Below are positions 36,146-41,059 of a DNA stretch of 43,367 nt, piece by piece. The position numbers and the translations under genes are program-made. The stretch is from positions 1 to 43,367 of the IMG/VR virus record IMGVR_UViG_2579778784_000007; one strand, 5' to 3'. Each line of letters starts with the position of its first letter. Position 1 is the stretch's first letter. Below the pieces are notes generated by a model. It was given only the letters and a program-made list of their open reading frames with translations, was not told the DNA's origin and did not search any database. This DNA comes from a virus (lineage: Duplodnaviria; Heunggongvirae; Uroviricota; Caudoviricetes).

Positions 36146-36331
36146 ATGACCATAGAAGAACGCCTGAACAACATTGAGTTGAATCAAACCCTGCTTGACC
36201 AGCGACTTTCAGATCTTGAGCTTAAAGATTTGGATGCGCAAATATTAGAAGCAGAGGCCAAGCTCTCCAGCTTAAACCACCGCAAGAAGCAAATCCGCAA
36301 CAGAATTACTCAGGGACGCGGAAGCTGTTGA
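36146..36331 (+). CDS. Hypothetical coiled-coil protein (61 aa)
   Basis: ATG 36146 with AGGA 8 nt upstream; overlaps by 26 bp the 3' end of the minus-strand ORF 36306..36515, so one of the two may be spurious. Confidence 0.3.
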   Translation: MTIEERLNNIELNQTLLDQRLSDLELKDLDAQILEAEAKLSSLNHRKKQIRNRITQGRGSC

Positions 36332-36515
36332 GGTGGGATGCTAGGTCTCTATCGTTAAAATCAAGGCTGCTAATCATTTCATTGTAAATAGCGTTTTTAT
36401 CTTCCATTGGCAGTCTTGAGTAAACCAGACACAGAGCATATTTCAGGGAGTTTAGCTCTTTCTCTAGCTCTTCCTTGCTTGATGTTTTTGACTTAATAAA
36501 CTGTTTTTTATTCAT
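36306..36515 (-). CDS. Hypothetical protein downstream of mnt
   Basis: 69-aa ORF coupled (ATGA-type) to the Mnt-like gene. Confidence 0.4.
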   Translation of the reverse strand: MNKKQFIKSKTSSKEELEKELNSLKYALCLVYSRLPMEDKNAIYNEMISSLDFNDRDLASHLNSFRVPE

Positions 36516-36748
36516 TTTGCATCCTTACCATACATGGTTTTCAGTGTTTCAATCAGCGCATCCCTGAATTTGTCAGCCTCTTTCTGAGCAAATTCATTGC
36601 TATTAAGCGATCTACCACAAACAGCATCTTCGATAATCTGTATTATTTCAGCATTCATGGAACGCTTGTTATGTTGCGCCCTGGCTTTAACCTTTGCCTT
36701 TAACTCTTTGGAAATCCTGATATTTATTTGCGGCTCTTCGCGTGACAT
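36512..36748 (-). CDS. mnt: Mnt-like ribbon-helix-helix repressor
   Basis: EPQINIRISKELKAKVKARAQHNKRSMNAEIIQIIEDAV parallels P22 Mnt DPHFNFRMPMEVREKLKFRAEANGRSMNSELLQIVQDAL; divergent from arc-ant. Confidence 0.75.
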   Translation of the reverse strand: MSREEPQINIRISKELKAKVKARAQHNKRSMNAEIIQIIEDAVCGRSLNSNEFAQKEADKFRDALIETLKTMYGKDAK

Positions 36749-36801
36749 ACCACCTCCATAGCATTTTGGTGATATTACTATTGCATCACTGCGATTACAA
36801 T

Positions 36802-36818
36802 GGTATAACGGTTATACC
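36802..36818. promoter_or_regulatory. 17-bp perfect palindromic operator between mnt and arc
   Basis: GGTATAACgGTTATACC in the 88-bp divergent intergenic region. Confidence 0.6.
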
Positions 36819-36836
36819 AAATTGATTGGAGGTAAT

Positions 36837-37010
36837 ATGATAGTCAAGTCAGACGCACCAAAGTACCCTTTGCGCATCCCATTAGAGGTTAAGTTAGCAA
36901 TCGAGAAGTCAGCGAAAGAAAATGGTCGCTCAATAAATACCGAGATGGTAATGCGGTTAGTGGATAGTTTAAGGCGGGATAGTTCTAAAGGTAATCTAGC
37001 AAAAAGTTGA
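36837..37010 (+). CDS. arc: Arc-like ribbon-helix-helix repressor
   Basis: 57 aa from ATG 36837 (GGAGG SD); PKYPLRIPLEVKLAIEKSAKENGRSINTEMVMRLV parallels P22 Arc PQFNLRWPREVLDLVRKVAEENGRSVNSEIYQRVM. Confidence 0.75.
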   Translation: MIVKSDAPKYPLRIPLEVKLAIEKSAKENGRSINTEMVMRLVDSLRRDSSKGNLAKS

Positions 37011-37072: not shown

Positions 37073-37951
37073 ATGAAAAGTATAGCAAAGGCACAAAACG
37101 ATTTCACCATCTTCAAATTCGGCGACAGTGAAATCCGCGTCATCAACAAGTGCGGTGAGCCGTGGTTTGTAGCTAAAGATGTTTGTGATGCTTTAGCTTT
37201 GACTAACTCACGCAAGGCGCTTACTGCACTTGATGACGATGAAAAGGGAGTAACTTTAAGTTACACCCTTGGTGGTGAGCAGAATCTAAGCATTGTTAGC
37301 GAATCAGGTATGTATACATTGGTTCTGCGCTGCCGCGATGCTGTCAATAAAGGTTCGGTCCCGCACAAATTCCGCAAGTGGGTAACAGCAGAAGTTCTAC
37401 CTTCAATTCGCAAACATGGCGAGTATGTGAAAGGCAAGAAAACCACTGTTGAGGAAAGAACGCCGCTACGCGATGCAGTAAACATGCTGGTAGGAAAGAA
37501 AGGACTTCGCTATGACGATGCATACAATATGGTTCATCAGCGTTTTGGTATTGACAGCATTGATGAACTTTCAATTGAACAAATCCCGCTTGCCGTAGAG
37601 TACATCCACAGGGTAGTGCTTGAAGGTGAGTTCATTGGCAAACAAGAGAAGAAGACCAACGAGCTTTCTGCAAAAGAAGCAAACAGTCTTGTATGGTTAT
37701 GGGATTATGCCAACCGTTCACAGGCATTATTCCGCGAACTGTATCCGGCATTAAAACAAATTCAATCGAACTATTCCGGCAGATGCTACGACTACGGTCA
37801 TGAATTCTCGTATGTTATCGGAATGGCGAGAGACGTTTTAATAAACCACACACGAGATGTTGATATTAATGAGCCAGACGGACCAGCGAATCTTTCCGCA
37901 TGGATGAGACTTAAGAATAAAGAATTACCTCCTTCAGTACATAACTACTGA
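37073..37951 (+). CDS. ant: Antirepressor Ant (Bro-N domain)
   Basis: 292 aa; N-terminal Bro-N-like domain ([28 protein letters not shown]...); downstream of arc as in P22 immI. Confidence 0.82.
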
Positions 37952-37970
37952 CAGATAACCAACGCAACGA

Positions 37971-37993
37971 CCCAGCTTCGGCTGGGTTTTTTT
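37971..37993 (+). terminator. Intrinsic terminator after ant
   Basis: CCCAGC-ttcg-GCTGGG followed by TTTTTTT. Confidence 0.65.
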
Positions 37994-38061
37994 ATGCCCA
38001 AAATTCACCGTAGCCACGCTGCGGCGATTCCTTGTATCTGGAGCAAATTAAATGACAGACA

Positions 38062-38562
38062 TTACCTACTCAACAGATGGTCAGCAACCATGTTTGCTGC
38101 CTTATAAGCTATAGCCGCTTCATCAATGGTGTTGAATCTCCCAAGGGTTATGTTTTTACCTGAGACATTTATCTGAGCTTGCCATTGATTTCTGGCTTGA
38201 CAGAAAGTTACCCCCTTGATTCCAGCATTGCTATTTCGAGGTCCGACATTTAATGCATTTACGACTCTGCTGACATCCCTAAGGTTTGAGATTGCGTTAT
38301 TTCTTCTGTTTCTATCAATGTGGTCAATCTCTTGTTTGGGCCATTCGCCATATACATACAGCCAGGCAAGTCTATGTGCAAAATATCTTACGCCATCAAT
38401 ATTAATTGCGTTATATCCATAAGAAATTGTGCCAGCAACTTTCCCAACAGCACCTCTGGCGCTTAATTTCTTTTTCCAAGTGAAAATTCCTGTTTCTTTA
38501 TTGTAATCGAGAACCTCCATAAGGCGCTCCCGAGTTACTACCTCGTGACGTCTCTTACTCAT
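38062..38562 (-). CDS. HNH homing endonuclease with AP2-like domain (copy 2)
   Basis: 166 aa from ATG 38562 (GGAG SD; ORF-track start 38604); HNH motif [19 protein letters not shown]; [13 protein letters not shown] segment parallels copy 1; encoded antisense at the tailspike 5' end. Confidence 0.7.
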
Positions 38563-38575
38563 TATTTTCTCCGGA

Positions 38576-41059
38576 ATGTTTATTATGCCAGAACAATTAT
38601 ACAACGTAGTTGTTTCACAACCAAGTCAGTTATTTACTTTAGCTCGCTCGTTTAAAGCAAATGCCAATGGCAAAATTTATATCGGTAAAATTGACACTGA
38701 CCCGGTAAATCCAGAAAACCAGATTCAGGTTTATGTAGAGAACGAAGACGGCTCTCACGTTCCTGTTTCGCAACCAATCATCATTAACGCTGCCGGATAT
38801 CCGGTATATAACGGACAGATTGCCAAATTCGTTACCGTGCAAGGCCATTCTATGGCTGTTTATGATGCGTATGGTGCGCAGCAGTTTTATTTTCCCAATG
38901 TGCTGAAGTATGACCCCGATCAGCTACGGCAGCAATTAGAAGATCCAGATGGCGCTAAAAAATATCCTGAGTTGCAGATAGCACGATGGAGAGATTGTGG
39001 AGATGTTAGAGGTTGGGGAGCAAAAATAGATGGGGTAACAGATGATTCAGATGCTTTTATTAAAGCTTTAAACTCTGGAAGGTCGGTTATAACAATTCCT
39101 GAAGGAATATGCATCATCAAGAAGAATATTAACATTCCTGAAGGGTGTTCACTGGTTGGATCTGGCATTGATTATTGGGATACATATAGACCAGCGCCTG
39201 AAAGATTATTAAAAAGTTGGAGTAAAGGAACCCATCTTGTATTTACTGGTGATGGAGAAAAAAACAAATATTTTTTTAACATCTCTAATGAAAGACCGGT
39301 TAAAATTGTTGAAGGGATATCTTGTAAGTTCACTGAGTTTACGAATGAAGATTCTGTAGGTGTTACTCCTGCTACACCAAAAGCCATGAGCGTAGCTGTT
39401 AGTATCAACAGGGCATCACAGTTACGCAATCTGAGAATAATGGTAAGTAAAAATGGTATTGAAGGATACAATAACCCTGATTCTTATTCATTGGGTGATA
39501 ACTGGGATATAGGGTTGCATGTATACGATAGCTGTGATTCAGTTATTGATAACGTACAGATTGTCGGCTATTGGAGGGTAAAAGGACTACTACTGACAGA
39601 AAATGACGGGAGCCTTTCAATGAAGGGAAATCCTGAAAAAACGCACTTTAATAACGTTTATGTACAGTCAGGAATCGCGATAAGGAATAGCCCTCAGATT
39701 GATCTTGTAAGTAATACTGAAAGCTCAGTGACATTTAAACATAAAAAGTCGATGAGAATAACTTCAGTTAAACAGTTTAAAATTGCTGGCAGTGAATCAG
39801 TATATACGTATTCAGATGCATCATTTGATGGAACTAATATCACACTATCTGGTATTTCTCCTGAAATACAAGGTTCAATAAGTGTAATCAGGTTTCCGTC
39901 AATTGGTAATAATTTTAGTGGGACTGTTTTTGAGAATACAGTAGCCACTACTCTTGATCATACATCAGGTAAGCCATCAGAATACTTTGGCCTTCCTGCA
40001 TCCTTTGCATTAGAGATTGATGGTTTCCCTGTTCGTAATTTAAGGCTTGATAAATTCAAAGCTCAAACTACCTTTGATAAAGGAAATTGCATTTTTGGTG
40101 ATTGCCGTGATGTTAAAATCACATCATCTGAGTTTGAAAATGGAATTATGATTGCGTATAACCTGACCGAGACTCAGGGTTATACAGGAAATCTTAGATT
40201 TTTTGCTTCTGATCTTCAGAGCAGCGTTAACACAAGCGAGTTTAAACCAAGAGACGCATTTGTAGACAATAGACAAATAAAAACGGAGTTTACTGATGGT
40301 TCTTTCATTATAAAGAACTGGAGGCCTACAGATACAAAAATACAATGGTCGTCTGGAGTGGATGCTATTGTTCTTAGAGAGTCACCTGACGAACAATCAA
40401 ACGGAAATATTTACGGGTATCACATTGATGGTAAAAGATGGATTAATGTTAGTGGATATAACAAAGATATAAATATTTCATCAAGAAACTTAAGCGTAAA
40501 AAACCATAGTGATGACTCCGCAGTTATTAATATATTCGGCGACTCTGGAAATATTGCCATTAAAGGTAATTTTTCACCAATTGTTGATAACAGCAAATCT
40601 CTTGGTGCACCATCATTTAGATGGGCTCAGATTTATTCTGCATCTGGGACTATAAGCACATCAGATGAAACACTTAAAACAATATATGACATTACTCAGG
40701 CAGAGCGTGATGCTGCGCTGGAAATAAAGGGAATTATATGCAAGTTCAGGTTTAATGAGTCGATTAATTTTAAAGGATTGGAGTTATCAAGGTATCATTT
40801 TGGAGTTGGCGCTCAAACCGTAGGGGATATTCTTAGAAAGCATGGTTTAAACCCTGAGCAATATGCTTTTTGGTGTTACGATGAATGGCCAGACGTATGG
40901 GATGAAGAGGTGATAACTGAAGAGAGCACAGATCCTGATACAGGTGAGAAAATTTATTCTCAATATAAAACAGGAAATATGATTCTTGTAAAAAAAGCAG
41001 GTGGACGCTACGGAATTCGTTATGACGAATTGGCTATGTTTATATTAATGGCAATGTAG
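38576..41059 (+). CDS. Tailspike: P22 gp9-like N-terminal head-binding domain, divergent central receptor-binding domain, C-terminal intramolecular chaperone (S74-like) domain
   Basis: N-terminus [53 protein letters not shown]...[12 protein letters not shown]...VLKYDPDQ aligns with P22 gp9 residues ~7..120; C-terminal ~130 aa resemble the auto-cleaving chaperone domain of endosialidase/K5 lyase/T5 fibre, with an S-x4-K dyad at SDETLK (Ser codon 40661..40663). Confidence 0.88.

Follow-up and report, generated by a model that had tools for sequence, protein, structure and literature searches.

The 43,367-nucleotide (nt) stretch analysed here, referred to below as the window (positions 1 to 43,367 of IMG/VR record IMGVR_UViG_2579778784_000007), is a P22-like prophage in which the tailspike gene is interrupted within its first codons by a 536-bp insert (38067-38602) carrying an HNH-AP2 endonuclease gene on the opposite strand. 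We judged this insert likely, with some room for doubt, to be a free-standing homing-endonuclease gene cassette, I-HmuI-like in its HNH part and ending in an AP2 part, that specialises in the 5' end of the tailspike gene in temperate phages of P22-like (Lederbergvirus) type. The 1-kb segment surrounding the insert is 99.9% identical to Escherichia phage vB_EcoP_Kapi1 (MT813197, Lederbergvirus), which alone among 50,697 deposited phage genomes covers the whole 1-kb query, and the HNH protein of the window is identical to Kapi1_066.

On the plus strand, GGAG (38040-38043) is followed after 8 nt by ATGACAGACATTACC (38052-38066), which encodes MTDIT. The initial annotation had noticed the likeness of these residues, with their GGAG Shine-Dalgarno (SD) sequence, to a P22 tailspike start, and comparison with relatives bore this out. 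About 100 nt upstream and the first 14 nt of the open reading frame (ORF) are identical to the tailspike starts of phages CUS-3 and vB_EcoP-611R6 (611R6), so that the resemblance is homology and a chance origin of MTDIT is ruled out. The native tailspike initiation region is left as a stub (38040-38066, plus strand) that opens a dead-end ORF; this frame does end early, as had been noted, after 20 codons (38052-38114) rather than 19. Tailspike homology restarts exactly at 38603 (AAC GTA GTT, encoding the NVV of NVVVS), downstream of the insert as described before and slightly beyond the earlier estimate of about 38600, and the insert therefore spans 38067-38602.

These bounds were fixed by junction alignment with the uninterrupted alleles of CUS-3 and 611R6, which start with MTDITA followed directly by NV, of HK620, which starts with MTDSINA followed by NV, and of E. 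coli GF43, which starts with MTDSINA. This alignment upheld the view that the tailspike gene is broken at its very beginning by a free-standing HNH-AP2 cassette. Empty sites in CUS-3, HK620, 611R6, GF43 and loci L088-L090 of our comparison set, against filled sites elsewhere, constitute a presence/absence polymorphism at one precise site, and the cassette measures 536 bp in 25 of 26 E. coli loci. The stop codon of the HNH gene, TAA (38062-38064), is the reverse complement of the TTA within codons 4-5 of the stub. The likeness of the stub to the downstream restart of the tailspike amounts to the gene start being duplicated in part; it is no target-site duplication of fixed length.

The HNH-AP2 endonuclease gene and its relatives

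The HNH gene lies on the minus strand (38062-38562) and encodes 166 amino acids (aa), and its earlier reading as an HNH/AP2 endonuclease gene was corroborated by domain searches and structure modelling. The product matched Pfam HNH_3 (PF13392) at residues 60-103 with 59.7 bits (cut-off 24.8) and was placed in the PHROG family phrog_99, 'HNH endonuclease', with an E-value of 7e-63. The match to AP2 (PF00847) at residues 114-156 reached 27.6 bits, under the cut-off of 33.3 (E 3.6e-6), and most close homologues have precomputed PF00847 matches on record. With 83 homologues as input, an AlphaFold2 model (predicted local distance difference test score, pLDDT, 88.4) supports an AP2 DNA-binding fold at the C-terminus: its last third resembles the plant AP2 domains of TEM1 (7et5; root-mean-square deviation, rmsd, 1.4 Å over 45 residues, 38% identity) and AtERF1 (1gcc; rmsd 1.4), with strands at residues 118-121, 126-133 and 136-143 and then a helix at 146-165. 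The first two thirds of the model matched I-HmuI (1u3e_M) over 96 residues with an rmsd of 3.1 Å, 26% identity and a Foldseek probability of 1.0, the E-value being only 0.014. Among the catalytic-motif residues, D80 is invariant in the 83 homologues, and H81, N89 and N93 are each at least 90% conserved. The motif (I/V)DH(I/K)D..N..NN.I.NLR is retained in all variants of this cassette type (type A) and in a more distant type B described below.

The HNH start codon (38560-38562) has GGAG 6 nt before it on the minus strand, and the plus-strand GGA (38573-38575) sits 9 nt before a tailspike ATG at 38585. CTCCGGA (38569-38575) would therefore hold the putative SD sequences of both divergent genes back to back, and most relatives retain it as CTCCGGA or CTCCGGG. 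The cassette as a unit (38067-38602) consists of the HNH gene, these putative overlapping divergent ribosome-binding sites and a replacement tailspike start (ATG plus 5 codons).

The distribution of the cassette was followed in about 60 related loci. Close relatives of the HNH protein (76-100% identity) came from IMG/VR and GTDB, and further ones (67-83%) were traced to contigs of Salmonella enterica, Serratia marcescens and Mixta calida; a Citrobacter protein was also listed. In all clade members examined (67-100% identity; from E. coli, Escherichia sp., Salmonella, Serratia, Mixta and uncultured sources), the HNH gene lies antisense between a tailspike stub and a complete second tailspike start with its Head_binding domain. 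What emerges is a discrete clade with a single address, the first tailspike codons, in prophages of Escherichia, Salmonella, Serratia and Mixta; the next relative with an examined context (P0043, 52% identity) lies in another context. The stub at each clade locus consists of the SD sequence and ATG plus 4-7 codons of a tailspike start, and it differs by lineage: MTDIT and MSDIT, the two stub haplotypes of the E. coli loci, as well as MSDS, MSDI, MADII, MADDIT, MSEQII, MSNII, MSET and MADTI, with MSDITAN in Salmonella. The HNH frame enters the stub in all relatives and stops 3-13 nt past the stub ATG, and the C-terminal tails of the HNH proteins are variable (SR, NQKAV, NLSE, NKCK, NK, NLPSL and NNLR).

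The junction at 38563-38665 was found whole in 15 of 5426 complete E. coli genomes, which are exactly the 15 HNH carriers, and the pattern MP(E/Q/K)Q(L/S)YNV occurred in 25 of 2.9 million IMG/VR contigs, all with the HNH gene. No MPEQLY allele without the HNH gene was found in either collection. The case named in the initial annotation as refuting its reading, related phages with this downstream start but no nuclease gene, thus did not turn up: the two occur together in 15 of 15 genomes and 25 of 25 contigs. Among about 1087 E. coli genomes matching the flanks, about 15 carry type A and 15 carry type B. The type B HNH-AP2 gene encodes 169 aa, 33% identical to the protein of the window and likewise of phrog_99; it stands at this very site with an identical stub and junction, ATGACAGACATTACC followed directly by TAC. 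It was found in E. coli NRG 857C (L005:2603-3220; NC_017634 1031560-1032177) and 14 other complete genomes (15 of 5426), and also in L048-L055; it stands in both MTDIT and MSDIT left contexts, and 88 nt on comes an intact HK620-type start, MTDSINA. When loci L034 and L038 were compared with deposited phages by megablast, no match was obtained, and L039 matched only at patches in the HNH gene and the head-binding domain.

Variants of the HNH gene at 76-81% identity differ by 0.14-0.2 nonsynonymous substitutions per site (dN) with saturated synonymous divergence (dS), and dN/dS is 0.03-0.07 where measurable. On this sequence comparison the HNH gene is under strong purifying selection (dN/dS ≤0.07); dating by dS is impossible, because synonymous sites are saturated for most pairs. 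A few decayed copies were seen, as expected of the life cycle of a homing gene. In L043 (3788-4284, IMGVR_UViG_3300011765_000024), a 1-nt deletion relative to the near-identical sister L042 splits the HNH part from the AP2 part, and in L006 (2459-2911, E. coli 30COLEC, NZ_CP070930) unrelated DNA with an ASCH-domain gene and an integrase has taken the place of the stub and of the HNH gene's 3' end. The latter locus resembles a prophage remnant retaining only the HNH gene and the tailspike. In E. coli MLI104K2 (L012:585-2022, NZ_CP116925), the insertion sequence IS1 abuts tailspike fragments, the 5' piece of which holds part of the tract linked to the cassette, and this locus is degraded as well. 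In Salmonella enterica GCA_006404235.1 (L095:1065-3501), no tailspike gene was called beside the HNH gene, though tailspike 5' DNA is present and fimbrial genes follow; the tailspike may be disrupted there.

Tailspike restart, recipient stub and linked tract

The long ORF does open at ATG 38576 (MFIMPEQ), as initially annotated, but the working start of the tailspike is most likely ATG 38585 (MPEQLY). This start lies 9 nt from GGA, near the native spacing of GGAG plus 8 nt, while GGA abuts ATG 38576; ATG 38585 is present in all relatives, and loci L039-L041 have no equivalent of ATG 38576. On this spacing and conservation, ATG 38585 is preferred and ATG 38576 was discarded as the likely start. 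The Kapi1 and RefSeq annotations also place the tailspike start at 38585. Kapi1 carries the same cassette, forms plaques and uses and depends on O-antigen, so a tailspike with the start from the cassette works. A practical point for annotating these phages is that their tailspike most likely starts at MPEQLY, the strong SD sequence and ATG further upstream being a dead stub.

The restarts in the clade are of two kinds, either MP(E/Q/K)Q(L/S)Y or native-type (MSDTIIP, MTDNITA, MTDSIIA, MSDSIIP and MTDNIIP). The MPEQLY start itself has ATGnCAGAACAA in common with MSEQII, a native start found in a different lineage, and the two starts agree at 12 of 18 nt. Given these native-type restarts in sister cassettes and this sharing, the restart is most simply a tailspike start imported with the cassette. 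An in-frame restart was indeed kept after the insertion, as proposed at the outset, but it was probably carried in by the cassette rather than being a lucky ATG that the insertion created.

The origins of stub and restart can be told apart where an empty allele of the same lineage is available. Loci L088-L090 hold the cassette-free allele of the L039 lineage, which reads GGAGAAAGCA ATG TCA GAA CAA ATC ATT CCT AAT GTT (MSEQIIP followed by NVVVS). The stub of L039 (MSEQII) and its upstream sequence equal this native allele. In contrast, the L039 restart (MPQQLY) and the next approximately 40 nt are diverged from it (22 of 30 nt identical), after which identity rises to 27-30 of 30. The same holds for the window, where the tract after the cassette matches CUS-3, HK620, 611R6 and type-B alleles at 13-15 of 30 nt first and at 27-30 of 30 from about +60. 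Read from these alignments, the stub matches the local phage lineage, and the restart with about 40-60 nt beyond it travels with the cassette. Such a foreign 40-60-nt tract is present in two independent lineages, and ordinary recombination could also have produced it. None of the 8 type-A-linked alleles carries the native string ATGCCTTCGCA, and this string is present in the alleles examined that are free of type A, except in GF43.

We further measured pairwise nucleotide diversity in 30-nt steps across 25-26 E. coli-type loci with the type A cassette. Diversity in the cassette is 0-1% per 30 nt, with a mean of 0.4% and 18 variable sites in 536. The first 60 nt of the tailspike after the cassette (38603-38662, plus strand) hold 1 variable site in 26 loci, and this segment, from identity and diversity profiles, resembles a co-conversion tract. 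The remaining head-binding domain has a diversity of 3-10%, with 99 variable sites in the next 270 nt. Diversity is 43-54% upstream of the SD sequence, where 16 distinct left flanks occur, and about 68% past the head-binding domain, where tailspike ORFs range from 449 to 984 aa. A nearly clonal cassette amid divergent flanks means that the same cassette stands in many phage backgrounds.

Proposed homing route and competing explanations

By analogy with known homing systems, cleavage specificity, homing, one-sided repair and immunity may be fitted to these observations as follows. The layout is the one expected of a free-standing homing gene that lies upstream of its target gene, points away from it and came into a new lineage through one-sided repair. 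In relatives that share the cell, by co-infection or as co-residents, the HNH enzyme would recognise tailspike alleles lacking the cassette and nick or cut them near codons 4-22, the cut being predicted to lie no more than about 30 nt from codons 4-7, or inside ATGCCTTCGCAACTCTTCAC. A break near codons 4-7 of the recipient tailspike would then be repaired from the cassette-bearing genome. On the right side, the donor would invade via conserved head-binding-domain sequence, and copying would take along the first 40-60 nt of the donor's domain, then the ribosome-binding site and start codon of the donor's tailspike, and finally the HNH gene. The left side would offer little or no homology, since the immI region is mosaic, and the end would be joined non-homologously at or beside the break. 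The recipient's SD sequence, ATG and 4-7 codons would survive there as a dead stub, into which the HNH reading frame would run until the first stop. Within one lineage, the finished unit could move by homology on both sides. The tailspike would stay functional because it is translated from the imported start at ATG 38585, and the residues exchanged would belong to the flexible tip at the N-terminus of the head-binding domain. The tailspike model in the Sf6 tail structure leaves out residues 1-3, and its protomers disagree over residues 4-16 (PMC9728967). With 536 bp splitting its target, and that target recoded, an allele that bears the cassette is presumably immune.

Several observations weigh against this account. 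Types A and B share the junction ACC followed by TAC in four cassette/context combinations (window 38067-38069 compared with L005 and L049), a coincidence not expected if each join had formed illegitimately on its own; in the closer relatives of type A the junction lies at other positions. Diversity climbs gradually along the head-binding domain, and ordinary homologous recombination around a linked insertion predicts the same. The sharp left boundary could likewise reflect the SD sequence and stub being the only homology on that side. The cassette is rare (about 3% of loci), so that its drive would be weak or its opportunities few. E. coli GF43 (L011:1481-1700, NZ_CP172127) has an uninterrupted allele with almost the same 60-nt tract; the tract is therefore not strictly specific to the cassette, and the idea that the recoded tract is an immunity signature unique to alleles with the HNH gene is weakened. 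The GF43 allele is either a donor-type ancestor or a case of cassette loss. A sequence search of the PDB with the HNH protein gave no match, so that no solved structure is related to it by sequence, and a simple sigma-70 scan of 37700-39100 found no promoter for the HNH gene or the tailspike where chance alone would give 3.1 hits, and was uninformative. Cleavage, target site and homing are themselves what we infer for the HNH protein and its close relatives.

A different role for the same cleavage is conceivable, although we regard it as unlikely: the HNH protein would serve the prophage as a weapon or exclusion factor against P22-like competitors that superinfect the lysogen or co-infect, harming their tailspike gene or some other site in them, and would have spread mainly by ordinary recombination and selection. 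This overlaps with homing in the cut itself, the benefit going to the host phage, and the two may coexist. Purifying selection over saturated dS points to a maintained activity rather than a decaying parasite. The gene also stands in the gene 16-immI-gene 9 region, where P22-like phages hold immunity genes (Arc/Mnt, Ant), and its antisense orientation to the late operon would, from the anatomy, make expression outside late transcription possible. Nucleases of homing type are known at exchange boundaries near essential phage genes (PMC10448857). A weapon leaves unexplained, however, the fixed site with its stub and donor-type restart, and the clonal island that ends about 60 nt into the tailspike. 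Still less probable is that the cassette is a passive passenger, inserted once in ancient times, inherited vertically and shuffled by recombination of the head-binding module, with no role of the nuclease in its spread. The mosaic nature of P22-like tailspike modules is notorious, and the CUS-3 annotation marks conserved 'boundary sequences'; both the gradual increase of diversity with distance from the cassette and its rarity would suit such a history. Yet a neutral 536 bp should gather inactivating mutations, whereas dN/dS stays at or below 0.07 across saturated synonymous divergence; a near-clonal cassette (0.4%) stands in backgrounds with head-binding domains about 10% apart and unrelated left flanks; and the stubs fit the local lineage while the restarts do not.

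The literal form of the earlier proposal, in which the insertion destroyed the gene start and a fortuitous in-frame ATG in the cassette (38576, MFIMPEQ) rescued translation, is very improbable. It draws on the long ORF beginning at 38576 and on MPEQLY not being a known native N-terminus, but it does not accommodate the absence of that ATG in L039-L041, the abutting GGA, the conserved 9-nt spacing of 38585, the perfectly native-type starts of sister cassettes or the 12 of 18 nt shared with the MSEQII start. We see hardly any chance of a self-splicing intron or a transposable element at this site. A coding sequence is interrupted, and phage tail genes with intron-borne endonuclease genes are known (PMC10448857). 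Against an intron, no group I or II intron or other Rfam family came near threshold in 37900-38800 (best E 0.58-9.5, far under gathering scores), the opposite-strand ORF fills almost the whole insert, and a conserved independent start with a ribosome-binding site follows the HNH ORF. Against a transposon, the insert ends at 38067 and 38602 lack terminal inverted repeats, and no transposase is present, the HNH ORF being the sole ORF of the insert.

Returning to the homing cassette, a bolder extension is possible but doubtful: the HNH clade would be a long-term resident of the 5' tailspike boundary in P22-like phages and would break DNA just where the conserved head-binding module starts. Temperate phages would thereby be driven to trade whole tailspike (host-range) modules, competitors lacking the cassette would be attacked, and new lineages would be entered by one-sided illegitimate repair, the stub being its footprint. 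If this were true, the stub positions, 11-21 nt past the ATG, would map the cut site. The tailspike sets the host range, and the head-binding domain is the recombination handle for swaps of receptor-binding modules. A nuclease cutting at the tailspike start could affect both the exchange of host specificity and competition inside lysogens among P22-like phages. Since Kapi1 is a cultivable phage with an identical cassette, the question is directly testable.

Related systems and the surrounding locus

Magnani and colleagues reportedly described, in 2004, an HNH-AP2 class of homing endonuclease genes in phages. To our knowledge, homing endonuclease genes are well studied in large lytic phages and hardly in temperate ones. 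HNH-AP2 proteins are called 'IPA-HNH' in ICP1-like phages by Barth et al. 2023, and homing genes cluster near essential genes and at boundaries of exchange (PMC10448857). The gene of the window is like these in its N-terminal HNH and C-terminal AP2 parts, its free-standing position beside an essential structural gene, its location at an exchange boundary and its presence/absence polymorphism. It differs in being at most 53% identical to anything outside its own clade, in residing in temperate P22-like prophages rather than large lytic phages, and in its strict tailspike-start site with a stub and a restart. I-HmuI, the intron-encoded HNH nicking endonuclease of Bacillus phage SPO1, is the solved structure that fits the N-terminal and HNH part best. 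Its C-terminus is a helix-turn-helix domain, whereas the HNH protein of the window is free-standing, antisense to its target gene and AP2-ended.

A closer parallel in gene architecture is Aeromonas phage Aeh1, in which the free-standing endonuclease gene mobE splits nrdA (PMC3045599). In both cases a free-standing HNH-family gene has settled within the coding region of an essential gene, with neither intron nor intein around it, and that gene remains functional. In Aeh1, both nrdA fragments are needed and reassemble as proteins, whereas here the 5-codon upstream stub is probably discarded and the downstream part has a complete replacement start from the cassette. The cassette thus survives within a coding sequence by means of a replacement start codon, not of an intron or intein. 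The seg and mob genes of T-even phages perform intronless homing (reviewed in PMC2988022). In that process a conserved neighbouring gene is cut, flanking markers are co-converted and junctions arise without homology on one side; by analogy only, such events here would account for both the stub and the tract of 40-60 nt. In 1999, Parker, Belisle and Belfort reportedly treated illegitimate (one-sided) repair of double-strand breaks in T-even phages. The Kapi1 preprint and paper do not mention the HNH gene, and full-text literature searches returned no relevant paper joining the tailspike or head-binding domain with an HNH or homing endonuclease at this site. We could not find a description of the HNH clade, of its tailspike-start address in temperate P22-like phages or of the solution by stub and imported start.

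At the locus, the gene order is ant, terminator, HNH cassette region and tailspike. The antirepressor gene ant (37073-37951, plus strand; Pfam Bro-N and P22AR_C, anti-repressor in the Kapi1 annotation) is the upstream neighbour and lies outside the mobile unit. It is followed by an intrinsic terminator found by terminator scan (37969-37996, plus strand; stem-loop and T-run), the sequence of which corresponds to the tANT annotation in HK620 and to bsq1 in CUS-3 and lies within the conserved 'boundary sequence' preceding tailspike genes. The tailspike as probably translated (38585-41059, plus strand; alternative in-frame ATG at 38576) has 824 aa. Its N-terminal head-binding domain (PF09008 Head_binding, 215 bits) matches the profile over its whole length, positions 1-113 of 113, and is followed by a beta-helix body and a chaperone-like C-terminal region. 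The body is unlike that of the Kapi1 tailspike, which has 791 aa, despite the same cassette, and the length of 824 aa is common to E. coli Combat2C1 and two IMG/VR prophages. Pfam placed a pectate-lyase-like beta-helix at residues 144-199, and weak sub-threshold matches to an endosialidase stalk and a Peptidase_S74 intramolecular chaperone fall at residues 654-758, near the C-terminus. The left context of the cassette varies by locus, with ant present, ant absent or gene 16 directly upstream. In the window, the small divergent ORFs upstream of ant (36306-37010) correspond to the Arc/Mnt-type immI regulators annotated in Kapi1.

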